This document shows positions 1,644 to 64,000 of a stretch of DNA of 64,000 bases, piece after piece (the stretch's first letter is position 1; each line of letters opens with the position of its first letter). The stretch is from the NCBI RefSeq assembly GCF_000027125.1, contig NC_017626.1; one strand, written 5' to 3'. The stretch comes from Escherichia coli 042. GTDB lineage: Bacteria; Pseudomonadota; Gammaproteobacteria; Enterobacterales; Enterobacteriaceae. The position numbers were made by a program, and so were the translations under genes. The notes below the pieces were generated by a model. That model was not told the DNA's origin. It did no database searches and worked only from the letters and a program-made list of their open reading frames with translations.

Positions 1644-1660
1644 GGTTTATCGTTGGTTTA
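1644..1660 (+). promoter_or_regulatory. PhoP box of the mgtA promoter
   Basis: Direct repeat GGTTTA-TCGTT-GGTTTA read in the sequence. It matches the (T/G)GTTTA-N5-(T/G)GTTTA PhoP consensus, upstream of mgtL/mgtA. Confidence 0.7.
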
Positions 1661-9172: not shown

Positions 9173-9637
<465 letters not shown>

Positions 9638-25437: not shown

Positions 25438-25522
25438 GCCGAAGTGGCGAAATCGGTAGACGCAGTTGATTCAAAATCAACCGTAGAAATACGTGCCGGT
25501 TCGAGTCCGGCCTTCGGCACCA
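25438..25522 (+). tRNA. leuX: tRNA-Leu (anticodon CAA)
   Basis: GCCGAAGTGGCGAAATCGGTAGACGCAGTTGATTCAAAATCAACCGTAGAAATACGTGCCGGTTCGAGTCCGGCCTTCGGCACCA. It has a long variable arm, CAA at 25472-25474 and an encoded CCA end. Confidence 0.95.
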
Positions 25523-27243: not shown

Positions 27244-29628
27244 ATGGCAAATTTTTCGGTAGCTGCGAGAACATTAATTCATTTAGGGGCGGAACTGATT
27301 ACCTCAGATGAAGTTGCTATAAATGAACTTGTTAAGAATGCTTTTGATGCCGAATCTAAACGGGTTAGGATAAATGTATTCATACCTATTTCGCATTCGT
27401 TAATAGATGACTGCCTTGCAATACTCGACAATAGTAAAAAAGAGGAAGCTCTTCAAGATGATATTTTTCATATAAAGAAAATGTTAATTGAAAGTGTTTC
27501 TGAACCTTCTATTGCAGCCCAAGTAGAAGAGTTGTTGCTAAACTTAACTTCAGATTCTAGCAAGGATGAAGCAAAAAAAATAGTCGAGTCGATAAACTAT
27601 ATAACAATCGAAGATTCTGGTTGTGGAATGGATTTAGCGACACTTGAAACGGTATTTTTGGCAATAGGCACTCCCTCTAAAGTAAACTCTGAAAGTACAA
27701 AAGACTTAAATAGAAAAATCCTAGGCAATAAAGGTATTGGACGTTTAGCAATGATGAGACTTGGGGATATTGCCAACGTTACATCTTGGGTTGAACAAGG
27801 TAGTGCCCATGAAATTGAATTCGACTGGCGAATGTTTGACGATCCTGAAAAAATAATCACCGATATTGAATTTGAAATAAAACCGACCACTTGTCCAAGG
27901 CCAACACCTTCAGGGACTGTAATAAAGATAACAGCACTTAAAAGCTCTTGGACTGAAGAAAAAGTTCGCGAAAAGCTCGTGGGTGATTTTTTTAGAAGGT
28001 TACAAAACCCATTTGTGATGTCATTGGATGAAGGTAGCTCCGATAACACAAAAAAAAATAAAAAGAATAGAACTGTAGGCTTTCCAATAGATGTTCATAT
28101 TAATGGAGGAACTCGAATACCTATCGAAGGTATGAAGAAAGTGTTAACAGATTTAGTTCAGGCTGATATGGAGCTCTGGTTTGACCCAAACGGGATTGGT
28201 GATACACCTGAAGTTATTCTCCGTACGAGTTTGACTGACTACCAACGTGGAAATGAACCTGAAAATACTAATAGAACAATAGAAGAAGTAACACATGTTT
28301 TAAATGTTAATTTTGAAGCACTTAAGAAAATTGGCCCCGTAAGAGCTACTATTAGATGGTTTAATAGAGAACGGTTACGCCAGCAAGCTACTTTGCATGG
28401 TAACTGGAAAGCAGCGAAGGCCGAATTAGATTTATGGTGTGGAGGAATAGCAATATATCGAGATGGTTTTCGCATTGGATTTTCTGGACAATCAACCGGC
28501 GAAGACTGGCTGGGACTAGATAGTTCTGCTCTTAAGAGAGGAGGTTTTGCTGTAAACCGTATTCAGACTGTCGGTGCGTTAGAGATTTCAAGAAAAGAAA
28601 ATCCCGGTTTGGTTGATAGATCTAATAGAGAAGGATTGATTGAATCACCAGAATCCAATCTTGTAAGAGATATGCTGTCGAAATTTGCTATTGATGAACT
28701 TCGTCGCTACATCGGTCATGAAGGGCAAGAAGAGAAGAAAGCACGTCTAAATGATATAGTTGAAAGCGCTCCTGCAACTATACGCGCTCGGATACTGCAA
28801 GCTGAGCAAGGACTCACATCTATAAGGTCTAAGGTTCCCGCAGATGTTCAAGAATCAGTACAATCAATCGCAAATAATTTACACTTTATAAAAAATGAAG
28901 TAACTCGTTTTGAAGAGGCTAGCAAACTAGCAACAGAGAGACGTGAGGATATTCTTGAACTTGCTGGTGTTGGAACCGTAATGTCTGGTGTACTACATGA
29001 GCTCACTAGGACAACAGGCCACACTCGACAGCTGTTACAAAAGTTATCTAAAGATGAGTCTCCTGGTACTAAAGCTTTATTAACGAAGCTAGATTCGGAA
29101 ATTAAAGCGATCAATACGCGACTTCGACAGTTAGATCCTTTAACACCTTCTGGAAGGCATCGCAAAGAAATATTTAATTTGTCAGCATTGCTGAATACTA
29201 TATTAGAAGGGTATGGAGCTCGCTTTGAACGGCATAATATAATTCCAGAATTCAAAATCTCTGGAGTTGATGATACTCAACCTGTCGAAGTAAATATGGT
29301 ACGTGGTTTTGTTAGCCTTGCAATTGAGAATTTAATTACAAACTCGGTTTATTGGGTTCAGCAGGGGGGGAGAAGTGATCGTCGTATTACTTTAGAACTA
29401 GATGCAGAATCTAGGACATTAACTTTGCGTGATAATGGGCCAGGTATTTCTCCTGCAGATAAAGACAGAATTTTCACTGCAGGATTTACAATGCGACCTA
29501 AAGGGCAGGGTTTGGGTCTTTTCATTGCAGCTGAAGTGGCTACCTATCATGATGCGAGGCTTTTGTTGGACTCTGCTGATGAGGATGGCCGATATAGAGG
29601 TTTTGTCTTGGAGCTTCCAAAGGAATGA
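27244..29628 (+). CDS. Cytoplasmic dual-GHKL protein: N-terminal MORC/Hsp90-like ATPase plus C-terminal histidine-kinase-like module
   Basis: 794-aa ORF. N-terminal Bergerat motifs are E28-LVKN32-AFDA, D124-SGCG128 and G161-NKGIGRLA. The C-terminus has an H-box-like SGVLH585ELTRTTG, an N-box ENLITN700SVYW, G1 D730-NGPGI and G2 GQGLGL. I see no obvious TM segment. Confidence 0.6.
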   Translation: MANFSVAARTLIHLGAELITSDEVAINELVKNAFDAESKRVRINVFIPISHSLIDDCLAILDNSKKEEALQDDIFHIKKMLIESVSEPSIAAQVEELLLNLTSDSSKDEAKKIVESINYITIEDSGCGMDLATLETVFLAIGTPSKVNSESTKDLNRKILGNKGIGRLAMMRLGDIANVTSWVEQGSAHEIEFDWRMFDDPEKIITDIEFEIKPTTCPRPTPSGTVIKITALKSSWTEEKVREKLVGDFFRRLQNPFVMSLDEGSSDNTKKNKKNRTVGFPIDVHINGGTRIPIEGMKKVLTDLVQADMELWFDPNGIGDTPEVILRTSLTDYQRGNEPENTNRTIEEVTHVLNVNFEALKKIGPVRATIRWFNRERLRQQATLHGNWKAAKAELDLWCGGIAIYRDGFRIGFSGQSTGEDWLGLDSSALKRGGFAVNRIQTVGALEISRKENPGLVDRSNREGLIESPESNLVRDMLSKFAIDELRRYIGHEGQEEKKARLNDIVESAPATIRARILQAEQGLTSIRSKVPADVQESVQSIANNLHFIKNEVTRFEEASKLATERREDILELAGVGTVMSGVLHELTRTTGHTRQLLQKLSKDESPGTKALLTKLDSEIKAINTRLRQLDPLTPSGRHRKEIFNLSALLNTILEGYGARFERHNIIPEFKISGVDDTQPVEVNMVRGFVSLAIENLITNSVYWVQQGGRSDRRITLELDAESRTLTLRDNGPGISPADKDRIFTAGFTMRPKGQGLGLFIAAEVATYHDARLLLDSADEDGRYRGFVLELPKE

Positions 29629-31475
29629 TTATGGATATTCAAAAGTCATTTACTGAATCAAAAATTTTAAAAGTAGCGATCGTTGACGACGATTTGTCCG
29701 ATTTAATTACTATGGACGATCTGAATACTATAGACAAGGATATTGCCAGTTTGCTTGGTGATCCATCCGATCCTGATTGTGAAAGTTACCATGAACTACT
29801 AGCATCTGAAGGCTATGATCTTGACGAAATAGAAGATCTTGCTCAACCTCTTTCAAATAAATCAATTAGAGAAAAAGCTCCTGAGCGTCTAAAAAATGCG
29901 GCAAATAAAATTATCGAATTTCGTTATGATAACGCCAAGCCAATTAGACGTGTTAAACAATTACTACTGGAAGCTGGCATTTTAGAGGATAATATTCATT
30001 ATTATTTTAGCCCTGAAATACCTAATGAAGAGTTTTATGATCTTTTAGTGATAGATTACTTCTTGGTAAAAAATTCCTCCAAGCATACTTTACCTTTTAT
30101 CAAAAAAATACTCTCAACTCATGAAAAGGCACCAAAGCCTTTACAAGTTATTCTGATGTCGACTTATGAGGCAGAGTTAAAAGCAGAATTCAGGAATATT
30201 CGTCCCGAGATAAGAACTTCAAGCTCAAGAATGAGAATCATGAGCAAACCAATGTCTGATGATGATTTAGTATACTGGCGCTCTGCTTTGTTCCAGTTAT
30301 CTTCAGATCGACAATTTGTCGATGCAGTAGAAAAATTTGTTACTGAAACAATAAGTGGTTTTCAACATGCTGCACAAGAACAAGCTAAAAGATTATGGGA
30401 GCTTGATCTTCAGGCAATGGATATTCTCCATGAAGCTGCAACATCTGATAATGATGATTTTTGCCGCTATGTTGAAGAATGTCTAAGTAGACAATTATTA
30501 ACGGCTCTAGAAGAATGCTCTGGTATAAGAAAATCATTAGGTGTTTTAGGTGAATCATTAATAAAACATAGAGCTAACAACGTAATTGCGCCTGTTACTG
30601 AAATTGGTGATTCGAGGGCGGCAATTAGAACACTAATGAGGAGTATGGAATGGCGTGGGGGAAATACCCCTAGCATGACAGAGTTTAAAGACCCTAAAGA
30701 CAGAGCAAAGTGGATTCAGAAAAATCTGAGATTTGGAATGGTACTAAAATCACCAGATGATAAAAGATGGCTTAATTTAACTCAAGCGTGTGATCTTGCA
30801 CAAACAAAAGAGGATAATTTAAATTCGGTATCTCTCTTGCTTATTAGTGGTTCCTATGCTCGGCCAGTTGGACGTGAGAATGGGCAATCATTAGTGTATT
30901 TGAACACATCATTATCTGATGCAGGTAGTGAGGTTTTGTGTTGGGATGTACGTAATGTTCAAACGCCCTCAATATTTGATTTTGCTCAAACGTTTTATAA
31001 TGGCTGGTCAATTACTGGAGAGCTTCGTCTAGACCAGGCTCAAAGTATAGCTGCTTTATATAGTTCTCGAACTTTAAGGGTTGGTCTTCAAAAAAGGCTA
31101 AGTAGCTGGTGTCTTGATGGTAAAGCTTTATTCATAAACAAATTAAATAACAGCGCTCCAAGTGATAAAATCGAGGGTACGACTATTTCTGGTCATGCGA
31201 TGAATCGTGGTAAACCCGACGAAGTACATATCGATAAAGATAGCATGATAAAGCTTCAAAGAGATTTTCCTAATAGTATTAATAAAATATCTCTGAAATT
31301 ATATATGGGAATGCAGCTAAAGCCTGGTTCAAAAAACCAAGAAGAAGGTATTTTGATTTATTGTGCTGAAAAGCCGGAGAATATAGAATCACTTCGTAGG
31401 GCTATTAATGATAATGATTTTTTAAATCGTGATGTTAATCAAAATAAAGTGGTAATAGCTCTATGGCATAAGTGA
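29625..31475 (+). CDS. Divergent receiver(REC)-like N-terminus fused to an unknown ~400-aa C-terminal domain
   Basis: 616-aa ORF. Its ATG overlaps the upstream stop (ATGA), and an alternative ATG at 29631 has better AAGGA spacing. REC-like landmarks are LKVAIVD21D22D23, YDLLVID144YFL, LQVILMS179T180 and IMSK208P. I recognise no output-domain motif. Confidence 0.5.
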   Translation: MIMDIQKSFTESKILKVAIVDDDLSDLITMDDLNTIDKDIASLLGDPSDPDCESYHELLASEGYDLDEIEDLAQPLSNKSIREKAPERLKNAANKIIEFRYDNAKPIRRVKQLLLEAGILEDNIHYYFSPEIPNEEFYDLLVIDYFLVKNSSKHTLPFIKKILSTHEKAPKPLQVILMSTYEAELKAEFRNIRPEIRTSSSRMRIMSKPMSDDDLVYWRSALFQLSSDRQFVDAVEKFVTETISGFQHAAQEQAKRLWELDLQAMDILHEAATSDNDDFCRYVEECLSRQLLTALEECSGIRKSLGVLGESLIKHRANNVIAPVTEIGDSRAAIRTLMRSMEWRGGNTPSMTEFKDPKDRAKWIQKNLRFGMVLKSPDDKRWLNLTQACDLAQTKEDNLNSVSLLLISGSYARPVGRENGQSLVYLNTSLSDAGSEVLCWDVRNVQTPSIFDFAQTFYNGWSITGELRLDQAQSIAALYSSRTLRVGLQKRLSSWCLDGKALFINKLNNSAPSDKIEGTTISGHAMNRGKPDEVHIDKDSMIKLQRDFPNSINKISLKLYMGMQLKPGSKNQEEGILIYCAEKPENIESLRRAINDNDFLNRDVNQNKVVIALWHK

Positions 31476-31623: not shown

Positions 31624-32463
31624 TTATTTATGGCAAATTGCGCATGAGCCTCCGCCTTCATCTTCCCCATAAATTTCATCAATATCAATGAGAGTCTCAC
31701 CAGGGCGTAGTGGGTTAATGATTTTTTTCGCTTTGAGTCTGGCTTGCCGCTTTTCAAAATCAGTGACAATTTGAGCAATTCTTTCAGGCTCCTCAAGTGA
31801 CTCTAGTGATTCACCTTTAGTCCAAGTAAAGGGAGAACCATGTTCAATTGCATTTTTTTCATATCGTTTAGCTTCTTCAAATGCCTCTGGGTGACGCTCT
31901 TTTAATCTTACCCACTCAATCTTTTGTTGGAAGAAGCAAAAAGTACAGCCGCTACGTGATCGCCATTCATAATATTTTGGAAGACCAACTCCTGATGAGT
32001 CAAGAATATCCATAACACCTTTCCGATCTATTCCGGCATCTCTAAATGGTAAACTAATAGTTAAATTTGCATTTTTCGAACTATATCCTTCACGGTAATC
32101 TTCGTCTGCTCTTATTGCTACATAGCTTGTAACTTTATCACCAGCATTAAGCATCGGACGAACCCACTGTTCGAAGGGCGCGAGTTTTAACTGACGAGTA
32201 CACCAACGAGTCTGCGGCGAGGGTAGAAAATGATTATATTCACGTAACCAGAAATCAAAACCACGTCTAGGGTTTAGTCTGGCAATTGGTTTGCCTAAAA
32301 ATCCTTCTAATCGCCCCAAAAACTCATAGACTTCAGGTAATTCTTTACCTGTATCAGTAAAGAAATAGTCGATATCTAACTCGGGGCGTGTCTGGCGCAT
32401 GAAAACAGCAAGTGCAGCACTGTCTTTACCCCCAGAAATACCAAGTACATGCTTTTCAGTCAT
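31624..32463 (-). CDS. sspD: PP-loop ATP pyrophosphatase, PAPS-reductase-like (SspD/DndC-like)
   Basis: Track ORF 31624..32481. The Met at 32463 has a GAGG Shine-Dalgarno and gives MTEKHVLGISGGKDSAALAVFM (SGGKDS PP-loop). C-terminal cysteines are CTFCFF and CAICHK. Confidence 0.7.
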   Translation of the reverse strand: MTEKHVLGISGGKDSAALAVFMRQTRPELDIDYFFTDTGKELPEVYEFLGRLEGFLGKPIARLNPRRGFDFWLREYNHFLPSPQTRWCTRQLKLAPFEQWVRPMLNAGDKVTSYVAIRADEDYREGYSSKNANLTISLPFRDAGIDRKGVMDILDSSGVGLPKYYEWRSRSGCTFCFFQQKIEWVRLKERHPEAFEEAKRYEKNAIEHGSPFTWTKGESLESLEEPERIAQIVTDFEKRQARLKAKKIINPLRPGETLIDIDEIYGEDEGGGSCAICHK

Positions 32464-35400
32464 TCTTAACCTCAACATCATGCTGAGCGATTTTAATACA
32501 AGCTTTACCTAATGCAGCCATTATAATATCTGGGTTTAATCCTTTTCCAGATAATGTTCTAATTAACTCACCGGCGAGGTTGTCAATCTGATGGTTGAAT
32601 TGCTCAGGTATACTGAATTCGTGTTTGAATGTTTTCATTTCTGAACCAGCTCCAATAACCACTGCAAATGCCTCGCTTGATGGTTTTCGTCCTTGGATCG
32701 ATACTAATGCTTCGGATTGGCGAAACCGCAGTGCAAAATTGGCTATTTCCATAAGTGCTAAATCAATATCTCGATCATTCCAGTCTCTTGGAGGCTTGTT
32801 TGCAGCTAGGCTGAGTATACCTTCTATAGAATAATGACTACCATCGTACGTAGCTAAACGTGTTGAAAAGGCATCTTGCCGAAGTTCGCCAGTGATACCG
32901 GATAACGTTTCAGCACGTTTTCGTAGTGTAGATAAGTCATCTTTATTAGCATTCAGAGCTTTTAGCATTCTTGATGCAAATTGGTCTAAGAGTTTGTCAT
33001 AGGCACTCCAAAGTTCTTTTACTGGAGCCTGTAATGCATCAACATAATTTTTCCCACTTTCTACATTTAGAGCCGCGGCTAAATCAATAAATAAAACTTT
33101 ATGAGGATCGCTAGCTTTTAATAGTGTATCTCGTACCTTCTTCGCATTAGATGAAAGTCTCGCCGTCCTTTGTGTCCAATTTGGGAGTCCAACAATCATG
33201 GCAACTAGACTTCTGGCAGCTTCTAACGGTTCAGCTGAATTAGACATGAGACCAATAGAATCAAGAAGTTTACCAATTCCTACTAGAATCTTTTGTTTTT
33301 CATCATCAATTACAATCCACCGCAAGGAAAAACGTTTTTCATCCTGCAAGTATTCATCAATATCTGCATCAGTAAAAGTAGGAATAAATAATCCATCTTT
33401 ATAAATAGCAATATTACTTTTAGATGCCAGAAGGAAGGCCATAAATATTATCGGTATAACACCTTTTTTTAAACCAAATGGAGGTTTAGCCCAAAGGGTA
33501 TGAATATCAGATACTGATATCATTTGATTTTTATTTTTAATGAAATCATGCGTTTTCTTCCAAAGACCATAAAACGACGAATGCTTGTCGCTGACCGCAG
33601 GAAGAAAATGATAATACCCATCATGATGCTTCGCATACAAGCCGGTACGATGGAGAATCGTTTCATATAGGCCGCGTGAGGCAGGATATCCCTCAATTCC
33701 AAGATGGAGTTCACCCTCATTTTCTAGCATTCGATATAACAATTCTTTCCTGGCTTTTACGCTATTGCTGGATAAATTATCACGATTAACTAATTCACTC
33801 CATAACCTTGGAGCTTTGTAGTAAATATTATCTGCAAGAGAGGATGCAATTGATGATAAAGTACCTTTAGGTTCCGCCTGAGCAGAATCTATACACCATT
33901 CCGCAGTCGCTAATGCCTCTGCTAACTGTTCTTCTAATGTTGATTGCGTTGCACTTATCCTTGCTTGGACTTCTCTTCGTGCAACAGCATCACCTTGTAA
34001 TTCATGTCCACGTTTAGTTTGGACTATTTGAAGTGCTAGGAGTTCGGCACCTAAATCTTCTATGCGCAGGTAGTTATGTGGAATCCCGGCAACAATGGGC
34101 CATGGCTTTGAACGAGAAGCATCAGCACAAATTATTTTAGCTTGTTCTTCATTTACATTTCTTTCAGGAAGTGCCAGAAGAAATAATCCAAACTCTCCGT
34201 TACGTGGCTGGAACTCTTCTGAATATTTTTTTACCTCGTTAAGGTGACAAAGTGCAATATTCATCCAGCGAAAAGTACCAGTTTGATGGTAATGCCTTTT
34301 TGCAATTACAGGATAAAGATTAGCAATTTTATTCAGTTGACTAAAATCTGTTCCAAGCATGGTTGCACGTGATTGTGCAACGGCTTGGTCAATATTAAAA
34401 TCACTTCCTTCAAAAACAGACCATGCCCCGGTATGTTTTTTGAATATGATAACACGCCATTTAGAAAGATCTTCGAGTGCGGATCTAATATTTTCAATAG
34501 AAGTATTCAAGAATAATGATTCTAGTATGCTTGTTTCAGCGGTCAATCCTGAACCATCTTTGAAAAGGTCAAGTATTGCAATACATTTAATTAAATCAAT
34601 ATGCAATATATTATCAGATTTTGCCTCCGCACGTTCTACAGCGTCTACCGCTTGTGCCCAACGATGTCCATCATTAGAGGCCAAAATTAATTGTTCAAGA
34701 TTTGCTCTTAAGTAATCGAAATAGTTTGAGGGAAGATACCAAGTAGCCTCTTCAAATGTGGTTAGATTGAGATAGTTTTGAAACCCGAAAGGTTCAGAGG
34801 ACGAGAGAAAACCAAAAGTTGAACGCTCGTTCTGTCCAAACTGACGTTTTGATATAGGTCCTAATAAAGCAGCCATTACCGGGTGTAAAGGCCAACACTT
34901 GGATAATGCATAATCATATTGCTTTCCAACCATTGGGCGTCGATCATAAATAGCATCCGCGACTACTTGCGCTACTTTTTGAGTGTATTTGGGTCTTTTT
35001 TTAACATCTAACGCTTTACCTATAAGTTCAACAACTTCATCACTCCCTGCAACTAAGGGAATATCAGCATAACGGCCTTGGATTTTAGTCCACTCTTCAC
35101 GAGTTTCAAGTCCAAGTCGAACAGCATATTGTCCAAAAGATTGATGTAATATACCTAAGATAATGACTTTACCATTTGTACGTGCTGCAGATTCAGCAAG
35201 CTCTTGGTAAAAATAAATATCATCGCCATTTCCTAAAGCTGATGCTTCAAGGAACTTACCTAGCTCGTCAATGATAAGCAAGGTACCATCTAACTTCGCT
35301 TCATCTGCAGCACTGCATATGTGTTTAATAAGTAATGATGCTGATTTTTTATAATCTTTATCACTACCACAAACATTATTCAGAGTTTGCGAAATTTGTT

Positions 35401-35788
35401 GGATTATGCTACCTCTGCGGCCAATAACTGGAAGTATTAACCATCCTTTTTTAACTTGGAATGCTTTATCAAAATCACTTTGTGAATCGACATTTAACAA
35501 TGACCTTGCTTTTTCACGTAGAGCTTTGTTAGGTGATAATGAACTTGCAAGAACTAACGCTAATGATGATTTCCCACTTCCATACGGACCAGTCCATGTG
35601 AAAGCTCGCTGTTGGCTATTCAGAACCTGCTTGGACATGTTTTCAAGAACGCTTTGTGCCGTGCCATTGCATACATATCCATCAAGCGCATCTTCGCGGC
35701 CAAGATCAGCATCAATACGGATGGAACGTTGGTATTGTCTCGCAATGCGAACCTGTTCTGAAAGAAGGTTTTTATTATGTTTAGTCAT
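32456..35788 (-). CDS. sspC: Large P-loop ATPase (DUF499/BrxC-like; SspC-like)
   Basis: Track ORF 32456..35800 starts at a TTG; the ATG is at 35788. Walker A is GPYGSGKSS and Walker B is LLIIDELGK. The ~1110-aa size fits DUF499-type ATPases. Confidence 0.65.
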   Translation of the reverse strand: MTKHNKNLLSEQVRIARQYQRSIRIDADLGREDALDGYVCNGTAQSVLENMSKQVLNSQQRAFTWTGPYGSGKSSLALVLASSLSPNKALREKARSLLNVDSQSDFDKAFQVKKGWLILPVIGRRGSIIQQISQTLNNVCGSDKDYKKSASLLIKHICSAADEAKLDGTLLIIDELGKFLEASALGNGDDIYFYQELAESAARTNGKVIILGILHQSFGQYAVRLGLETREEWTKIQGRYADIPLVAGSDEVVELIGKALDVKKRPKYTQKVAQVVADAIYDRRPMVGKQYDYALSKCWPLHPVMAALLGPISKRQFGQNERSTFGFLSSSEPFGFQNYLNLTTFEEATWYLPSNYFDYLRANLEQLILASNDGHRWAQAVDAVERAEAKSDNILHIDLIKCIAILDLFKDGSGLTAETSILESLFLNTSIENIRSALEDLSKWRVIIFKKHTGAWSVFEGSDFNIDQAVAQSRATMLGTDFSQLNKIANLYPVIAKRHYHQTGTFRWMNIALCHLNEVKKYSEEFQPRNGEFGLFLLALPERNVNEEQAKIICADASRSKPWPIVAGIPHNYLRIEDLGAELLALQIVQTKRGHELQGDAVARREVQARISATQSTLEEQLAEALATAEWCIDSAQAEPKGTLSSIASSLADNIYYKAPRLWSELVNRDNLSSNSVKARKELLYRMLENEGELHLGIEGYPASRGLYETILHRTGLYAKHHDGYYHFLPAVSDKHSSFYGLWKKTHDFIKNKNQMISVSDIHTLWAKPPFGLKKGVIPIIFMAFLLASKSNIAIYKDGLFIPTFTDADIDEYLQDEKRFSLRWIVIDDEKQKILVGIGKLLDSIGLMSNSAEPLEAARSLVAMIVGLPNWTQRTARLSSNAKKVRDTLLKASDPHKVLFIDLAAALNVESGKNYVDALQAPVKELWSAYDKLLDQFASRMLKALNANKDDLSTLRKRAETLSGITGELRQDAFSTRLATYDGSHYSIEGILSLAANKPPRDWNDRDIDLALMEIANFALRFRQSEALVSIQGRKPSSEAFAVVIGAGSEMKTFKHEFSIPEQFNHQIDNLAGELIRTLSGKGLNPDIIMAALGKACIKIAQHDVEVKND

Positions 35789-36671
35789 AAGCCTTTCCAA
35801 GCATGTTCAATTTAATTACTTCTGTTTCTGATGTTTTACGATGAACCTGGCGTAAACCAGCTGTATCAGTCCATATAAATGAACCTTCAGTTAACTCTTC
35901 TAATGCGAATAATCGTTCTGCAATAGAGTCTTCATCGAGCTTAAATACTCTACCCGGAGAACCGTCCCCATATGCAATTGTTTCGAAGGATAATGAGCTG
36001 AGATTTAGGGCCTTACGCTCCCAATAATCGATCAGAGCATAAGCAAATACACCATCAGACAAAGTAATCTTTGGACCTCGACGAAATGAAAAGTGTCCTT
36101 TTTTTTCTTCAGCTAGTAAACCTAATTCACCAAGCATAGGTTCGGCAAAGTCTTCAGGAGTGGTTCCACTCGACCGCGGTGCATAACTACGCAAACATGT
36201 CTCAATATCTCGAGAAAGTGTCATTGGTGATAGTTTTCTCCCAGGACAACATTGCGTAGCATAGTCAGCTAAAAGAGCCCGGAGGTCTTCTTGTGTAAAA
36301 GATGAAGAAACAACATGGTTAAATAACCAGTACCAAGTTGTCGAGCGTTCTCCTTTTCCTGAAAGCTTCCAATGGCTAAGCCATGCTGTCGAGGGATGCT
36401 CTGAATAAGGATCAAGCCCATGTTCGCTAAATATTTTAATAGCAAATTCTGTAAGTTTGAATTTACCATCCTCTTCTCGCATTACTTCACAGGCGAGTGC
36501 CCAATGCTTGATTGATGCGACCATGTTTTTGCCTACACCAAATTTGGCAATGGCCTCATCATTCGAAAAAACCGATTTGTCAATAGAACCATCCGGCGCT
36601 GCATAACTGCAGGTTTTTTTTAACCACATTTGTCTTAGTGGGAAGGTCTCGTGACCTGAAAAGTGAGCCAT
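35781..36671 (-). CDS. sspB: DUF4007-family protein (SspB-like)
   Basis: 296-aa ORF. The N-terminus MAHFSGHETFPLRQMWLKK matches my recollection of the DUF4007 signature. It is the first gene of the three-gene overlapping operon. Confidence 0.65.
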   Translation of the reverse strand: MAHFSGHETFPLRQMWLKKTCSYAAPDGSIDKSVFSNDEAIAKFGVGKNMVASIKHWALACEVMREEDGKFKLTEFAIKIFSEHGLDPYSEHPSTAWLSHWKLSGKGERSTTWYWLFNHVVSSSFTQEDLRALLADYATQCCPGRKLSPMTLSRDIETCLRSYAPRSSGTTPEDFAEPMLGELGLLAEEKKGHFSFRRGPKITLSDGVFAYALIDYWERKALNLSSLSFETIAYGDGSPGRVFKLDEDSIAERLFALEELTEGSFIWTDTAGLRQVHRKTSETEVIKLNMLGKAYD

Positions 36672-41741: not shown

Positions 41742-42755
41742 TTATTCAATTCCTGTGGTGACTGTAAAAGTGCGCGTTTGCTGCGGTGCAACCTGAATCA
41801 GCGTGCCATTACGTTGCGCGGCAAGATACCCCTCAGGCCGACAGGTTGCAGGTAATGCAAAGGCGGCTACCTGTTGCTCTCCGTTATAAAGGATCCAGCG
41901 TGTCACATAATTTAGTTCAGCACTGTAGAAACGAGTAACAAACGTAGTGCCATCGGGAGAGATCATGCGAAACTCTGGCTGATCTGTATAAGCGTCCAGT
42001 TTGTCTGCAAAGAAGACAATTTCTGGATCATAAAATTCCGGTTGACTCAGCGTCGACAGAGAGGCTTCTCCCTGCATAATCCGTTGATTAAACGCCAGCC
42101 ACTGAGCGGTGGGATTAACATGCGAAGGCACTGATTCACGCAATCTTAATATTTCGTCCGGGATATTCTGGCTGAATGTAGCATTTGGTATATATGCATA
42201 ATTCATGTGGCACATATATTGTAGTGGCATATCTACAGAAGCCAGATTGGTTACGGCCATCTTAATATCGAACAGTGTAGAGGATTTGTGAAGGACCACT
42301 GTTGGTTGAGCCAGATAATGATGACCGAAACCCATTACATACTCGTAACGCCCGTTAAGGCGTAACATATCTCCGTCTAATTCCAGCCATGCTTCATCCA
42401 TCGCGGCACAGGCCATTTCACCGTGTAGCAGATGAGTATCTTCCGCAGATGGGCAGCCATTAGCCAGCAAACCTGAATGAAAAGCAAAACAGCCATAGGT
42501 CTCTATCACCTCTGTCGCCGGTTTAGGCTGGCGAAACATATTGCACATGGTGAGGCCGTGTCCATCAAATTGCGCATCCCAAATCATCTGCCCCATCCAG
42601 GGAAGAATAATCAAATGTCCACGACTGTTTGCAATTTTAAGCCCCTCGACACCGCTGTCATAGCGAAAAGACGTGACAGTAAAATCACTATTTTCCAGCA
42701 AGATACGAGGTTTCTCGCCAAAAAGCGCCCGCCACAAATTAATACGCGTACTCAT
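41742..42755 (-). CDS. deoX: Putative deoxyribose mutarotase (aldose-epimerase-like)
   Basis: 337-aa ORF, last gene of a kinase-permease-X operon divergent from a DeoR regulator. This is the deoQ/deoKPX arrangement known from Salmonella and pathogenic E. coli. Confidence 0.65.
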   Translation of the reverse strand: MSTRINLWRALFGEKPRILLENSDFTVTSFRYDSGVEGLKIANSRGHLIILPWMGQMIWDAQFDGHGLTMCNMFRQPKPATEVIETYGCFAFHSGLLANGCPSAEDTHLLHGEMACAAMDEAWLELDGDMLRLNGRYEYVMGFGHHYLAQPTVVLHKSSTLFDIKMAVTNLASVDMPLQYMCHMNYAYIPNATFSQNIPDEILRLRESVPSHVNPTAQWLAFNQRIMQGEASLSTLSQPEFYDPEIVFFADKLDAYTDQPEFRMISPDGTTFVTRFYSAELNYVTRWILYNGEQQVAAFALPATCRPEGYLAAQRNGTLIQVAPQQTRTFTVTTGIE

Positions 42756-57798: not shown

Positions 57799-59045
57799 TG
57801 AGGTGTACTGGCAATAGCGGACACTACCATTTGTTCTTTTTTTAAGCAGCCATCTGATGATATTTTTCCCTGAAGGCTGCCGGGGAGATATTCCCCAGAC
57901 GAGAGTGACGACGCTGACGATTGTAGAAAATCTCAATGTATTCCCGTATTACTGAGATGGCTTCATCCCGGTTATTAAAACGATAGTGGCTCAGGCTCTC
58001 ATTTTTCAGCGTTCCCCAGAAGCTTTCCATCGGAGCGTTGTCGTAACAGTTACCTTTACGCGACATTGATGTTTTCAGACCAAACTGCTCCTGTATGACC
58101 CGGTAATCGTATGCGCAGTACTGTGAACCTCGATCAGAGTGGTGGATTAGCCCGGCAGGTGGGCGCTGGCTCCTGAGCGCCATAAACAGGGCTTTACCTG
58201 TCAGCTCTTTTGTCATGCGCTCTCCCATGGCGTAGCCGACAATTTCGCACGTATAAACATCTTTGATGCCAGCGAGGTACAACCATCCCTCCTGTGTGGC
58301 AACATACGTCAGGTCCGCCACCCAGACCTGATTTGGTGCTGTAGGAGCGAACGTCTGGTTCAGCAGATTTGGCGCAACTGGCAGATTGTGGTTCGAGTTC
58401 GTAGTCGCTCTGAACTTGCGTTTCTGCTTACAGCGTAGCCTTAGCTCCTTACGAAGACGTGCCAGTCGGTCACGACCAACGATGATGCCATTCTCTGCCA
58501 GCTCCGTCTGGAGCCGCCGGGTTCCATATGTTTCGCGAGTGCGGATATGTGCCACCTTAATCTCCAGTTTTAGCCGCTCATCACTTTGTTTTCTGTCTGA
58601 GGGTTCATGCTGTACCCAGTTGTAATAACCGCTCCTGGATACACCAAATACCTGACACATCGCTTCAATGGGAAATTGTTGTCGCCATTGTTCGATTAAC
58701 GCGTATTTTTCAGCGACTCCTGTGCAATTTAATATATCTCGCTCAAGGCGAGCTTCATTTAACGCCTTACGCAGTTGCAGAATTTCAGATTCCAGTTCAG
58801 CCACCGTGCGGGAACCAGGAGTACCGAGCCCTTTTCTGGCGGCGGTAACCCATTGTCCTAAAGTGCCTTCAGGAAGAGATAATCGGGAAGCACCTTCACT
58901 GATCGAAAGTTGATTTTCAAGAACCGTTCTGACAGCTTCGGCTTTGAACTCTTTAGAGTAACGTTGGGTTTTTCTGCTCATTATTAGCTCCTTCTGATGC
59001 CATTCTATTTCAGGAAGGAGTGTCCGTTAAACTCAGGCTACCTCA
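57799..59045 (-). mobile_element. IS600-like element (IS3 family), 1247 bp
   Basis: Termini are TGAGGTGTACTGGCAATAGCGGACACT (57799) and AGTGTCCGTTAAACTCAGGCTACCTCA (ending 59045). I found no clear 3-bp TSD. Confidence 0.8.
57842..58981 (-). CDS. IS600-type transposase as a single in-frame OrfA-OrfB fusion (379 aa)
   Basis: MSRKTQRYSKEFKAEAVRTVLENQ... (OrfA HTH) runs without a stop into the DDE domain (...HSDRGSQYCA...YDNAPMESFW...). The junction reads ERDILNCTGVAEKYALIEQW. Confidence 0.8.
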   Translation of the reverse strand: MSRKTQRYSKEFKAEAVRTVLENQLSISEGASRLSLPEGTLGQWVTAARKGLGTPGSRTVAELESEILQLRKALNEARLERDILNCTGVAEKYALIEQWRQQFPIEAMCQVFGVSRSGYYNWVQHEPSDRKQSDERLKLEIKVAHIRTRETYGTRRLQTELAENGIIVGRDRLARLRKELRLRCKQKRKFRATTNSNHNLPVAPNLLNQTFAPTAPNQVWVADLTYVATQEGWLYLAGIKDVYTCEIVGYAMGERMTKELTGKALFMALRSQRPPAGLIHHSDRGSQYCAYDYRVIQEQFGLKTSMSRKGNCYDNAPMESFWGTLKNESLSHYRFNNRDEAISVIREYIEIFYNRQRRHSRLGNISPAAFREKYHQMAA

Positions 59046-59161
59046 TTGGTTCCCACTACTTATTTGGTGGACACCACTTTGTCTAATTCGTCAGATTCTG
59101 ACCAGACGGTTCAGGCTGTACGCTTACAAACAACTAGTGGAAATACTTGTACTTTATAATT

Positions 59162-60106
59162 TCAAGGGTACGGGTCCGCTTCGTTTGATTTGCGTGTTTT
59201 TAACAATTTTAAAACCCAGACATACTGTTCCGGATGTGGCCCCACCAAAATTTCCACTGTTTTGTTCATTTGTCGGGCAATCATTTTATTGTCCGCGCTG
59301 GCAATGCAAGCATCCATTGGTGGCCGAATTTCAATAGTCAGGAGATGTTTTTTTTCATCATAAACCGGGAAAAGTGGTATAATCATAGCCTGACTGATGT
59401 TCATCAGACGTCCAATGATTGGTAATGTCGCTTTATAGGTCGCAAAAAAATCAGCAAATTCACTGTATTCAGGACCATGATCCTGATCTGGGAGGTAATA
59501 TCCCCAGTATCCCTGGCGTACTGACTGAATAAATGGTTTTATCCCATCCTCCCGGGCATGTAAGCGCCCCCCGAATTTACGCCGTACTGAATTCCAGACA
59601 TAATCAATCACTGAATTTCGTTGCTGATGAAACATGGCGGCCATTTTTTTTCCCTGAGCTGCCAGCAACATTGCAGGAATATCCACGCTCCAGCCATGGG
59701 GAACCAGAAAAATCACATTTCTATTATTGTGTCGAATTTCCTCAAGAATTTCGAGGCCTTTCCAGAACACTCGTTTCTGGAACTTTTCCGGACCACGAAT
59801 TGCCAGTTCTGCCATCATCACTATGGATTGCAATGCTGTGGCAAACATTTTGTCGACAATTATTTCCCGTTCTGTATCACTCTTTTCTGGGAAACAAAGC
59901 GATAAATTAATCGTCGCCCTGCGACGAGCTTTTTTGCTCAATCTGCCCGCCCAACGCCCTATTTTTGCCAAGACAGGATCTCTGAATGAAGGGGGAAACA
60001 TTGAAATACCTGCAATCATTCCCAAAAGGAACCATGTAGACCAGTAAACAGGGGAAAGGTAATTTTTCTTAAATTCAGGAATAAACTCAGATTTATATTT
60101 TTTCAT
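59162..60106 (-). CDS. msbB2: Lipid A late (myristoyl) acyltransferase, LpxM paralog
   Basis: 314-aa ORF collinear with LpxM as I remember it (IPEF...YW, LVPHGWSVDIPAMLLAAQG, GYWGYYLPDQDHGPE). It is last in the shf-capU-virK-msbB2 order. Confidence 0.85.
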   Translation of the reverse strand: MKKYKSEFIPEFKKNYLSPVYWSTWFLLGMIAGISMFPPSFRDPVLAKIGRWAGRLSKKARRRATINLSLCFPEKSDTEREIIVDKMFATALQSIVMMAELAIRGPEKFQKRVFWKGLEILEEIRHNNRNVIFLVPHGWSVDIPAMLLAAQGKKMAAMFHQQRNSVIDYVWNSVRRKFGGRLHAREDGIKPFIQSVRQGYWGYYLPDQDHGPEYSEFADFFATYKATLPIIGRLMNISQAMIIPLFPVYDEKKHLLTIEIRPPMDACIASADNKMIARQMNKTVEILVGPHPEQYVWVLKLLKTRKSNEADPYP

Positions 60107-60170
60107 TATTTAGTGCGAATGCCTCTACCAAAATTATCATTACTGTTTTATTCAGAGAATACATCAAACC

Positions 60171-61121
60171 TTAATTTAAATTCTGATGTTCTGAGTGTAC
60201 AGGATATGCATCCAAAGAGCGGATAGTAGTTTCATGGATATAATCCAGCAAAGCGTATCGTTTTCGGTACTCAGAGCGTTTTTTACTGGCTATATCGCTT
60301 AGCGGCTTTCGAATCACCTGGGTTGGTAATCTGTACCAGTCACCACAGGTTTTTCCTGCTACAGACTCCCAGAAATCACTATAGACCGCAACAAAGGTTT
60401 TGCGTTTCTGATACCAGTATCTCAATTGCCGGAAAACATGACTGTGCTCACTGACTGCCAGACACTCAGAGATATTGCAAGCTTTCATCAACGCACAAAA
60501 TGCTTCAAAAATAATCCGTTTTGGGAAAATCCCATAACAGGCCCGGGTTGCGCACCGAATAACATCAGGTCCGGTATTTTTAGGGGCTCCCTGTAATCCG
60601 CCAATAAAAGCAATGTGTCCATTTTGAGTCAGAATGACTGAAAATGTTAACCGGGCAATAACTGTTTTATTGTAAAACAATGACAACATCAACTCTCCTT
60701 CCCGGTCAAAACCACTGGGAGAACACTGGATATCAAAATTCTCTCCATCTTTCCCGATGAATTGGACTAATGATACCGATTTTTGTGGAAACAAAAATTT
60801 AGAATATTTTTCTGGCAAATTTTGCACAAAGCGATAATGCTCAAGAATATATTGTCCACGGGTCCAGGCGCGCCCCCCTTTATGCAAATAAGGGCGATGA
60901 ATTCTTGCTGGCAACGTGGGGTGTATTGCCAGAATATCCTCAATGCACGGCAAGGAACGCAGTTCATAATAATATCGAATACTGACAACCGGATTTATAG
61001 AACATCGCAAAATGTACATGAACCGAAATTTTCTGTGTTCCCACTTCCCCGGTAGTGAATCTGAGGAAAAAATAATCCTTTTAAGGAAACCGATAAATGA
61101 TAAGTTACTTATAGAAAACAT
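60171..61121 (-). CDS. virK: VirK-family protein (DUF535)
   Basis: 316-aa ORF between the glycosyltransferase and msbB2, the position and size I recall for Shigella/EAEC virK. Confidence 0.75.
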   Translation of the reverse strand: MFSISNLSFIGFLKRIIFSSDSLPGKWEHRKFRFMYILRCSINPVVSIRYYYELRSLPCIEDILAIHPTLPARIHRPYLHKGGRAWTRGQYILEHYRFVQNLPEKYSKFLFPQKSVSLVQFIGKDGENFDIQCSPSGFDREGELMLSLFYNKTVIARLTFSVILTQNGHIAFIGGLQGAPKNTGPDVIRCATRACYGIFPKRIIFEAFCALMKACNISECLAVSEHSHVFRQLRYWYQKRKTFVAVYSDFWESVAGKTCGDWYRLPTQVIRKPLSDIASKKRSEYRKRYALLDYIHETTIRSLDAYPVHSEHQNLN

Positions 61122-61125
61122 ATTG

Positions 61126-62214
61126 TTACGTTTGCTTCGCTAATGTGAGTATTTTTAACGCAGTTTTATTAATATCAAACCGCTCTTCTATATCCTGTTT
61201 TGCCAGGCGAGCCATCTGATAAAAACGCCCAGGGTCATTAAAAAAATCATTCAGGGCGCACATCCATGCGTGCTTATTACCTGCTGGTAACAATGTCCCG
61301 GTCTGGTTGTTCTGAATAACCTCAGGGATTCCACCAATCTGAGTGGCCACTACAGGCACAGAAAATGCCGATGCTTCTGCCAGCACCATACCAAAAGATT
61401 CGTTTTCTGAAGGCAGAACCACCAGACTGGCAACCCGATATACGGGGGCGGCAGGAAAAACATTGTCAGCAATAAAAACATCATCATGCATGCCCATACT
61501 GTCAATCTGATACTGTAAATGTTCCCGCAGTTCAGGTGAACCAGACCCCACAATCAACCAACAGAACTGTCGTCCATTCATTTTTAAATGGAACAGTAAA
61601 TTCAACATAAATTCGTGCCCTTTTTCCGGGCGCAACATTCCTACCTGAGCAATTACGGGGCATCCTCTTCGGGACGCCAGCCAGGAAAGAACACTCGGAG
61701 GCAAACTGTTTCGGGAATCAACGTATAATTCCTGGAAATCAAAGCCAGGAGGCACAACAGTAACCCGAGTTCGACATCCTTCCTGCTCCAGATGTGTCTT
61801 CATATTTGTTCCGGGAACAATCACCTCATCGCAAAAATGATTTATTGAAAAAAATTTTGTTTTTCGTGTCAAATATGTCTTTTGCCTGATAATTCTGAAT
61901 GGATGTTTCCAGGTAAAAAACCGTACCAAACCAACAATATTACTATCATGTCCACTGTGACAAACGATTGCATCGGGCTGAAAACTATGAACTATTCCGA
62001 GTAATCTCCATACAGTAGGAATGTGAAGACTGTTTCGAAATAACGCGAATGTGATATCAATTCCAAACTTACTGGCTTCAAAAGCAATTTTGCTGTTCTC
62101 CCTGCAGACAAGCAGAACTGAATGCCCCATTTTCTTCAGGGCCTTCATTTGAGCAACAGCCTGTAATTCCTGACCACCTATATTCGGTGATGATTCCGTA
62201 AATAGTATATTCAT
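61126..62214 (-). CDS. capU: GT4-family glycosyltransferase (CapU/RfbU-like hexosyltransferase)
   Basis: 362-aa ORF with a C-terminal E-x7-E-type motif (ENESFGMVLAEA). Confidence 0.8.
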   Translation of the reverse strand: MNILFTESSPNIGGQELQAVAQMKALKKMGHSVLLVCRENSKIAFEASKFGIDITFALFRNSLHIPTVWRLLGIVHSFQPDAIVCHSGHDSNIVGLVRFFTWKHPFRIIRQKTYLTRKTKFFSINHFCDEVIVPGTNMKTHLEQEGCRTRVTVVPPGFDFQELYVDSRNSLPPSVLSWLASRRGCPVIAQVGMLRPEKGHEFMLNLLFHLKMNGRQFCWLIVGSGSPELREHLQYQIDSMGMHDDVFIADNVFPAAPVYRVASLVVLPSENESFGMVLAEASAFSVPVVATQIGGIPEVIQNNQTGTLLPAGNKHAWMCALNDFFNDPGRFYQMARLAKQDIEERFDINKTALKILTLAKQT

Positions 62215-62216
62215 TA

Positions 62217-63038
62217 TTAGTCATCCGGTAATCTTGGCCCCTTATGAAGGGCCAGCAACGATGAAAAAAACGGTGTTGTATAATAAAAAAGTCGTCTTTT
62301 CAGCCATACGCAATTTTCCCGTTCCTTGGTGCTTATTCTTCCTATCCGTGTAGTTCCTTTAGCAGGAGCATTCATTCTTCTTTCTGTTGTATATAAATAA
62401 TGGAATCCAAGTTCTTCAGCGATCTGAATATAATCCTTGTTATAATAACCTTCCGGCCAACACAAATGTTTACTGCATTTTCCTGTCATTTTTTTTAAAT
62501 ATTCTCTCCCGCTCAGTAAGTCCTGCCGAAGATGTTTACACTGTTCTTCTCGTGAAGTGAACTTTTTATCCCAACGTGTATGAGTATGTGTATGAACATG
62601 AAATTCGACCAGACCAGATTGCAACATTTCGTTCACTTCAGACCAGCGAAGCATAACATTATCAGCATTCCCGGTTGCTATTTGATGTTCGCAATCGCGA
62701 TGAGAATATTCCTTTCCAGGAGAGTGACGAACCGGACCATTTCCAATAAAACTGGTAATTAAAAAAATATGTGCCTGGAGATTAAACTCGTTTAATAAAG
62801 GATATACCTGAAACCAGTTGTCAAGGTATCCATCATCAAATGTCAACATAACGCTTTTACGGGGAAGTTTTCCGCCCCGATAAAAAAACTCCAGTTCATC
62901 TGATGACAGTGTTTTCCAGTTGTTTTCAGCCAACCATTTCATTTGTTTCCGGAATGTCTCGGGAGAAAGTGTAACCAGTCCTGGGCAATGGCTGACATGA
63001 TGATACATTAATACCGGAACATGATTTGCTTTAAACAA
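62217..63038 (-). CDS. shf: Polysaccharide deacetylase (NodB-homology, IcaB-like) Shf
   Basis: 273-aa ORF with the NodB motifs LTFDDGY and HTHTH. It is the first gene of the four-gene cluster. Confidence 0.8.
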   Translation of the reverse strand: MFKANHVPVLMYHHVSHCPGLVTLSPETFRKQMKWLAENNWKTLSSDELEFFYRGGKLPRKSVMLTFDDGYLDNWFQVYPLLNEFNLQAHIFLITSFIGNGPVRHSPGKEYSHRDCEHQIATGNADNVMLRWSEVNEMLQSGLVEFHVHTHTHTRWDKKFTSREEQCKHLRQDLLSGREYLKKMTGKCSKHLCWPEGYYNKDYIQIAEELGFHYLYTTERRMNAPAKGTTRIGRISTKERENCVWLKRRLFYYTTPFFSSLLALHKGPRLPDD

Positions 63039-63202
63039 AATGCCTCCTCCGTTTAAAATTTAAAGTTTCTGGCACCCAGTAAGTAGAGATAAAAGGAAAG
63101 CCTAATAAAGTTGGTGAACTTTATATACTACTAAATCAAACATCAACAATTTATAAACAATAATATATTATCATATCTTTTAAAAACGGCTCACTAAGAA
63201 CC

Positions 63203-63547
63203 TTGAGGTGGCACACTAAATTTAGCTACCTGAACAGAGGTGATATGCTCACCTCAGAACAACACAGGTGCCATAATGAAAAAAGAAATTTCAGCGCAGA
63301 GTTTAAACGCGAATCCGCTCAACTGGTCGTTGACCAGAAATACACCGTGGCAGATGCAGCCAGCGCTATGGATGTCGGCCTTTCCACAATGACGCGATGG
63401 GTGAAACAATTACGTGATGAGCGGCAGGGAAAAACACCAAAAGCCTCCCCCATTACCCCGGAACAAATTGAAATCCGTGAGCTCAGGAAAAAGCTACAAC
63501 GTATTGAAATGGAAAATGAAATATTAAAAAGGCTACCGCGCTCTTGA
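63203..63547 (+). pseudogene. IS911-type OrfA frame; the canonical ATG is out of frame
   Basis: The frame encodes ...[51 protein letters not shown]...[11 protein letters not shown]. The ATG at 63276 is followed by only six A and is out of frame with this sequence. Confidence 0.6.
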
Positions 63548-64000
63548 TGTCAGACTCCCTGAACAGTTTTCGATAATCGGGAAACTCAGGGCGCGTTATC
63601 CTGTGGCCACTCTCTGCCATGTGTTCGGGGTCCATCGCAGCAGCTACAAATACTGGAAAAACCGTCCTGAAAAACCAGACTGCAGACGGGCTGTATTACG
63701 CAGCCAGGTACTTGAACTGCATGGCATCAGCCACGGCTCTGCCGGAGCAAGAAGCATCGCCACAATGGCAACCCAGAGAGGCTACCAGATGGGGCGCTGG
63801 CTTGCTGGCAGACTCATGAAAGAGCTGGGGCTGGTCAGTTGCCAGCAGCCGACTCACCGGTATAAGCGTGGCGGTCATGAGCACGTTGCTATCCCGAATC
63901 ATCTTGAGCGACAGTTCGCCGTAACGGAACCAAATCAGGTGTGGTGCGGTGATGTGACCTATATCTGGACGGGTAAGCGCTGGGCGTACCTCGCCGTTGT
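63204..64000 (+). mobile_element. IS911-like element (IS3 family), 5' part; it runs off the window end
   Basis: IRL-like TGAGGTGGCACACTAAATTTAGCTACCTGAACAGAGGTG at 63204, followed by orfA- and orfB-type frames. Confidence 0.8.
63567..64000 (+). pseudogene. IS911-type OrfB (DDE transposase) frame, partial
   Basis: My translation gives [78 protein letters not shown]...[20 protein letters not shown]. It is open to the window end and lies +1, not -1, relative to orfA. Confidence 0.6.

Follow-up and report, generated by a model that had tools for sequence, protein, structure and literature searches.

A chromosomal shf-capU-virK-msbB2 locus in a leuX island of Escherichia coli and its predicted control by PhoP

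A locus composed of shf, capU (also called rfbU), virK, and msbB2 is known both from plasmids and from chromosomes. In enteroaggregative Escherichia coli (EAEC) 042, according to the genome paper, a chromosomal shf-rfbU-virK-msbB2 set (Ec042-4769 to 4772) lies a few genes away from fec (Ec042-4776 to 4782), and the plasmid pAA2 of the same strain carries a second copy, shf-capU-virK, without msbB2 (PMC2808357). A review has tabulated leuX islands with Fec, VirK, and MsbB2 for strains CE10 and ED1a (PMC7545054). Here, we analyzed a 64-kb stretch of E. coli DNA (called the window below; all coordinates are window positions) that contains a complete four-gene set, unlike pAA2. The results indicated that this set is very probably a chromosomal shf-capU(rfbU)-virK-msbB2 allele in a KpLE2-like leuX island and a PhoP-activated transcription unit for envelope remodeling. 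Nothing of substance distinguished it from the chromosomal leuX-island copies found near fec in EAEC 042, CE10, and ED1a. Although an initial annotation of this DNA implied that the chromosomal locus was new, the operon and its chromosomal position are already known, being published and annotated in hundreds of genomes.

Gene content and relation to described copies

The gene calls, the module, and its flanks were located in the window (Table 1). The four genes were intact open reading frames (ORFs) on one strand, with intergenic gaps of 2 bp between shf and capU, 4 bp between capU and virK, and 64 bp between virK and msbB2. Coordinates, order, strand, and protein families all matched the four co-oriented minus-strand genes proposed in the initial annotation. 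On the shf side, the homology with the plasmid copies extended up to the junction with an insertion sequence (IS) at 63203/63204. The GC content of the module was 40.7%, compared with 44.8% for the island and 49.9% for the core chromosomal portion of the window. As a low-GC segment of foreign DNA, it is surrounded by IS elements, namely, an IS66 remnant, IS600, and an ISEc52/IS911-type element.

Table 1. Positions of the four genes, the predicted regulatory sites, and the surrounding features in the window
Feature	Position	Strand	Remarks
leuX, tRNA-Leu(CAA)	25438..25522	+	Only tRNA in the window; island attachment site
Integrase ORF (tyrosine integrase)	25722-26975		Adjoins leuX
IS600	57799..59045	-	1,247 bp; 98.0% identical to IS600 of pCP301; inverted-repeat ends intact
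IS66-family terminal remnant	59046..59127	-	82 bp; GTAAGCGTACAGCC... in minus-strand reading; cut short by IS600
Conserved module common to the plasmid copies	59128..63203	-	pCP301 and p1081 alignments both start at 59128
msbB2 (lpxM2)	59162..60106	-	314-aa ORF; predicted second lauroyl-Kdo2-lipid IVA myristoyltransferase with an N-terminal hydrophobic anchor
virK	60171..61121	-	316-aa ORF, intact in the window; DUF535, YbjX paralogue
capU (rfbU, Sfgtr4, wabB-like)	61126..62214	-	362-aa ORF; predicted GT4 retaining glycosyltransferase
shf (SfpgdA)	62217..63038	-	273-aa ORF; predicted NodB/PgaB-type deacetylase
Shine-Dalgarno sequence of shf	63043..63050	-	GGAGGAGG, read from the sequence; TTG 4 nt after
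Predicted -10, TAGTAT	63125..63130	-	12 nt downstream of the PhoP box; promoter call based on alignment
PhoP box (pattern match)	63143..63159	-	TGTTTATAAATTGTTGA; 105-121 bp upstream of shf
IS911-like (ISEc52-like) IS3-family element, left end	63204..64000	+	Runs beyond the window end

The closest relatives of the locus outside the chromosome are plasmid copies. The copy on pCP301, a pINV plasmid of Shigella, resembled the window in gene order, orientation, the PhoP box, and the IS911-type left-end junction upstream of shf. The two were 96.1% identical at the DNA level over 3,997 bp, and the proteins were 93.0 to 96.2% identical over their full length (MsbB2, 96.2%; VirK, 93.0%; RfbU, 95.8%; Shf, 95.6%). 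Unlike the window locus, however, the pCP301 copy is plasmid-borne, has about 47 extra bp between the PhoP box/-10 region and shf, and has IS630 on the msbB2 side. The copies on plasmids of enterotoxigenic E. coli (ETEC), namely, p1081 of ETEC 1392/75 and the E24377A plasmids, shared the short promoter variant and the IS junction of the window, but they are set in a plasmid backbone with IncF repA and ccdAB. For p1081, the identity reached 99.07% over 4,179 bp (98.7 to 99.7% for the proteins). The DNA identity to the window was 99.0 to 99.6% for E. coli plasmid copies and 96 to 97.7% for pINV copies, so the high identity to plasmid operons expected in the initial annotation was found.

We then compared the rates of change in the coding regions. 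The ratio of nonsynonymous to synonymous differences (pN/pS) was 0.24 against pCP301 and 0.17 against p1081, indicating that purifying selection acted along the compared lineages. The synonymous divergence (pS) from p1081 was uneven, with 0.045 for msbB2 and at most 0.012 for shf, capU, and virK. This pattern suggests that the module may be a mosaic, which would fit the pAA2 locus without msbB2.

The kinship with plasmid operons had also been extended to ecf1-4 of pO157, and this part of the claim did not stand. In the order seen in the window, pO157 carries genes for a deacetylase, a GT4 glycosyltransferase, and a second LpxM, with protein identities of 70% for ecf1, 59% for ecf2, and 65% for ecf4. 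Unlike VirK, however, the ecf3 product is a 573-aa protein of the sulfatase family (PF00884), and BLASTP showed no significant similarity between the two (best E value, 0.16). No DNA-level match between the module and pO157 was found by megablast. The upstream regions are not homologous either; the region upstream of ecf1 was tried as an outgroup to polarize the indel of about 47 bp in the shf promoter and was rejected for this reason. The window locus is therefore an analogue of the pO157 ecf operon and not a member of it, and the description "ecf-like" is true for three of the four genes.

All four proteins gave clear family assignments. MsbB2 matched PF03279 at 2e-95 (model positions 2-295 of 295) and TIGR02208 (lipid_A_msbB equivalog) with 442.1 bits against a cutoff of 336.05 (residues 8-313 of 314). 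The H-x4-D/E motif is the catalytic dyad of the lysophospholipid acyltransferase superfamily. In MsbB2, it was found as H137-G-W-S-V-D142, aligned to HGWAVD of K-12 LpxM (MsbB1). These matches, together with 70% identity to K-12 LpxM over the full length, agree with the earlier proposal that msbB2 encodes a second LpxM-type protein. Unlike msbB2, K-12 lpxM belongs to the core genome, where it lies between mepM and pyk, and is not in a four-gene operon. Myristate transfer onto the 3' secondary position of Kdo2-lauroyl-lipid IVA has been reported for Shigella MsbB2, which is 96% identical to the window protein (cited in PMC12562796 and PMC2808357).

VirK matched PF04393 (DUF535) at 2e-89, and a structure sequence search found no solved structures related to it by sequence. 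In Shigella, VirK is a cytoplasmic protein with a predicted GNAT-like fold, and it is required for resistance to polymyxin and novobiocin (PMC12562796). CapU matched PF13692 and the GT-B fold domains PF00534 (Glycos_transf_1) and PF13439 (Glyco_transf_4), and it contained an E272-x7-E280 motif. Its nearest solved relatives are the N-acetylglucosamine (GlcNAc) transferases MshA and BshA. SfGtr4, the Shigella CapU orthologue, has glycosyltransferase activity and binds SfPgdA (PMC7355660), and RfbU was reported to add alpha-1,7-linked glucosamine (GlcN) to the R3 lipopolysaccharide (LPS) core and was renamed WabB, as summarized in PMC2808357.

Shf matched PF01522 (Polysacc_deac_1) at 1e-28 with 100 bits. 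Its best NCBIfam matches were PgaB and IcaB, and its best solved relatives were BpsB/PgaB. The metal-binding Asp and His motifs were present as TFDD (residues 66-69) and H149-T-H-T-H153, with only a tentative register for the second His ligand against PgaB. No signal peptide was visible in Shf. Its orthologue SfPgdA has been reported to deacetylate peptidoglycan (PMC7355660).

Start of shf and its promoter region

The start of shf is most likely the TTG at 63038. This assignment is based on the spacing of the Shine-Dalgarno sequence GGAGGAGG and on the ATG of pO157 ecf1, which lies at the same position. The resulting 273-aa Shf aligned colinearly with the ecf1 product. In RefSeq, shf is annotated as a 280-aa protein starting at an ATT at 63059, and this start is probably wrong.

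We searched the window for PhoP boxes with the pattern (T/G)GTT(T/G)A-N5-(T/G)GTT(T/G)A. Two matches were found in 64 kb, compared with 0.14 expected by chance. One of them, in the mgtA promoter (1644-1660, plus strand), acted as an internal positive control; the second is the box upstream of shf. Alignment with pCP301 and p1081 showed the shf box to be conserved, and its sequence, TGTTTATAAATTGTTGA, agrees with that given for pCP301 shf (Table 5 of PMC5775216) except for one spacer base. In Shigella, binding of PhoP upstream of shf was seen in electrophoretic mobility shift assays and footprinting, and a reporter assay showed that the shf promoter is activated by PhoP. This promoter responded to low Mg2+, to acid pH, and to polymyxin, in each case by PhoPQ-dependent induction (PMC5775216). 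By analogy, the window allele would also be under PhoP control.

In a general promoter scan, promoter-like sites were no more numerous than in shuffled sequence. The predicted -10 TAGTAT was placed by alignment with Shigella, where the -10 at the equivalent position (TAAATT) and the transcription start have been mapped (PMC12562796). The alignment also located the difference in promoter length noted above. In the pINV copies of Shigella and EIEC, the extra segment of about 47 bp follows directly after the PhoP box and includes the mapped -10 TAAATT (pCP301 L003, ~9964-10012). This segment is absent from the window (~63124-63131) and from ETEC p1081. The long variant was found in 139 pINV-type plasmids and in 0 E. 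coli chromosomes by megablast with a 183-bp pINV-type promoter, a search that detects only the long variant.

Proposed role, prevalence, and decay of the locus

By analogy with the orthologues of Shigella, EAEC, and O157, we propose that the four genes would be transcribed as one unit from a PhoP-activated promoter located about 80 to 120 bp upstream of shf. Its products would most likely remodel the envelope in response to a PhoQ signal, which may be low Mg2+, acid pH, or cationic peptides. MsbB2 would add a secondary myristoyl residue onto penta-acyl lipid A, backing up or supplementing LpxM and keeping lipid A hexa-acylated. CapU, as a GlcNAc-type GT4 enzyme, and the signal-peptide-less Shf may together modify a sugar-containing envelope polymer, for which the candidates are inner-core GlcN of LPS, as for WabB of pO157, or peptidoglycan, as for SfPgdA of Shigella. 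VirK, a putative cytoplasmic YbjX paralogue, would support the outer-membrane barrier and polymyxin resistance.

For Shf and CapU, a two-step addition of GlcN to the LPS core by a GlcNAc transferase and a cytoplasmic deacetylase would fit better than an action on mature peptidoglycan. Such a scheme resembles that of Klebsiella WabH/WabN. In the literature that was searched, no paper stated directly that Shf works with WabB as the deacetylase in making core GlcN.

The practical relevance of this proposal is modest. A carrier strain would have a PhoP-inducible second LpxM, a transferase/deacetylase pair, and VirK. In such a strain, a single lpxM knockout, as used in detoxified vaccine or protein-production strains, might not give penta-acyl lipid A, and both envelope remodeling and polymyxin tolerance may differ from those of K-12.

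To see how widespread the locus is, we used the four-gene core as a query against 5,426 complete E. coli genomes. The core matched in 562 genomes, 431 of which held at least 80% of it. The locus was found at 522 chromosomal places and 115 plasmid places, and the carriers included O104:H4, porcine ETEC, and many clinical isolates. The housekeeping lpxM was found in 5,425 of the 5,426 genomes; CV839-06, the genome closest to the window, has two lpxM-type loci.

Several observations weigh against the proposal that the locus works as a PhoP-activated envelope-remodeling unit. First, the window allele keeps the PhoP-box/-10 architecture, but its -10 hexamer differs from that mapped in Shigella and its 5' untranslated region is shorter, so its regulation may differ in strength. 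The terminator scan found no clear intrinsic terminator downstream of msbB2. Second, the published roles of Shf conflict, as it has been described as a peptidoglycan deacetylase, a biofilm factor, and an LPS-core deacetylase, and a cytoplasmic Shf, as the lack of a visible signal peptide would imply, is a poor match for an action on mature peptidoglycan. Third, 131 of the 562 carriers held less than 80% of the locus. Individual carriers showed truncation, IS1 or IS5 insertions, msbB2-only remnants, or a stop codon in virK. Even in CV839-06, the sole difference from the window over 59000-64000, a C-to-A change at 60857, creates an internal stop in virK. This recurrent decay suggests that the locus is often dispensable.

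The same signs of decay, and the activity already supplied by the housekeeping lpxM, would also be expected if the chromosomal copy were a decaying, silent relic. In the window, however, the four reading frames and the catalytic motifs were intact, as were the Shine-Dalgarno sequence and the PhoP box, and the pN/pS values of 0.17 to 0.24 also speak against a relic. We therefore consider it improbable that this copy is one, and we retain the reading of an envelope-remodeling unit activated by PhoP.

Chromosomal setting, flanking insertion sequences, and mobility

Counted from leuX, where the island begins, the locus lies about 34 kb inward. This region has the features of a KpLE2-like island, namely, a tRNA, an adjacent integrase, a lower GC content, and multiple IS elements. 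When the window was aligned with the closed chromosome of CV839-06, positions 1-39527 were 99.96% identical and positions 38927-64000 were 99.93% identical. The collinear stretch runs through treR, mgtA, pyrBI, valS, lptFG, and leuX into the island. The gene order TetR-DUF2254-BCCT-IS600-msbB2-virK-capU-shf-IS-fecEDCBARI recurred in O104:H4 2009EL-2050, 190693, and CV839-06. The window had 1 mismatch in 4,251 bp relative to 190693 and 1 in 5,001 bp relative to CV839-06.

These data bear on the possibility that the window is a misjoined assembly and that the operon was on a plasmid in the source strain. Such an error might be suspected, as near-identical copies are present on many ETEC and other plasmids and IS elements, which are typical assembly-break sites, lie on both sides. 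In addition, pEC11-5, a deposited 21-kb "plasmid," carries exactly this block. However, the entire 64 kb align collinearly with the closed CV839-06 chromosome at an identity of at least 99.9%, and the junctions from BCCT through IS600 to msbB2 and from shf through the IS to fec recurred in independently closed chromosomes, including O104:H4 and 190693. The 522 chromosomal places point in the same direction, and pEC11-5 has only island genes without a replicon. A misjoin is thus extremely improbable, and the placement of the operon in the chromosome, within the leuX island, as given in the initial annotation, was confirmed.

We next examined the flanking IS elements. On the msbB2 side, IS600, named in the initial annotation, was confirmed, and its transposase matched an IS3-family hidden Markov model at 8e-120. 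In this copy, a 17-bp deletion (AAAAAGCAACAGCGTAT) has taken out the A-rich slippery site for programmed frameshifting, so that OrfA and OrfB form a single 379-aa ORF (57842-58981, minus strand). Such a frameshift-independent transposase could behave unlike that of wild-type IS600. A 379-aa IS3-family ORF was also present at the same position in O104:H4, strain 190693, CV839-06, and pEC11-5. Between IS600 and the module lies the 82-bp IS66-family remnant, which had been overlooked. The identical 82 bp adjoins an IS66 tnpA elsewhere in the island, at 9290-9371 in CV839-06 (L002) and at 42664-42745 in 190693 (L001). Thus, at least three IS types are layered on the msbB2 side.

On the shf side, the element earlier called "IS911-like" was about 98% identical to copies named ISEc52 and 91 to 92% identical to copies named IS911, so that the name is acceptable but loose. 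The start of its orfA is frameshifted (A6 instead of A7), and matching genomes annotate a frameshifted IS3-family pseudogene. Unlike the window, some relatives have a group II intron (ltrA) that splits this shf-adjacent IS911-type element, as in 190693 (L001, 25475-27712) and O104:H4 (L009, 14474-15982). CV839-06 and the window lineage are without the intron in that IS.

The initial annotation further proposed that the operon had been captured from a plasmid through IS elements, and this was not demonstrated. No target-site duplication was found at IS600, where the flanking triplets are tgt and ttg, or at the IS911-type element, the far end of which was read in CV839-06. These flanks therefore do not allow a simple transposition event to be reconstructed. 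Where the shf upstream region meets the IS911-type element, the chromosome, p1081, and pCP301 have an identical junction, indicating that this element became attached before the copies dispersed. In E. coli, more copies are located on chromosomes than on plasmids. A plasmid origin by capture is plausible, and the transfer could have gone in either direction; IS-associated recombination would have carried the module between plasmids and the leuX island.

The opposite direction, in which the leuX-island copy was the source of the ETEC and EAEC plasmid copies through IS pickup, can be considered tentatively. It is in line with the 522 chromosomal places against 115 on plasmids. It also agrees with the flanks, which are longest in the chromosome (the IS66 remnant plus a full-length IS911-type element, of which p1081 keeps only about 100 bp), and with the higher identity of the E. 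coli plasmid copies (99.0 to 99.6%) than of the pINV copies (96 to 97.7%). On the other hand, at 40.7% GC the module is foreign to E. coli anyway, and the pINV copies show greater divergence and occur widely in Shigella. This question concerns only the history of the locus and not its identity as a chromosomal shf-capU-virK-msbB2 allele.

The record pEC11-5 (NZ_CP060942.1) deserves mention here. It was deposited as a 21-kb circular plasmid, has no replicon and no mobility genes, and contains only fecIRABCDE, the IS911-type element, shf-capU-virK-msbB2, IS600, BCCT, DUF2254, and an IS3 element. The record represents an assembly artifact or else an excised circular form of the island block. This circle and the frameshift-independent IS600 are behind the idea that the IS-bounded block of about 21 kb (fec, the IS911-type element, the shf operon, IS600, BCCT, and DUF2254) is an actively mobile translocatable unit and not a fixed segment. 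We regard this as unlikely; if true, it could explain the movement of the operon between leuX islands and plasmids.

A further feature of the island was observed near its leuX end. Directly after the leuX integrase, an SspB/SspC/SspD phosphorothioate-modification module is located at 31624-36671 on the minus strand, and PADLOC gave matches for SspD at 1e-140, SspC at an E value of 0, and SspB at 7e-115. Beside it are two large plus-strand genes (794 and 616 aa; 27244-31475), one of which has a weak match to a type II restriction enzyme. These two genes may be the restriction partner of the Ssp module.

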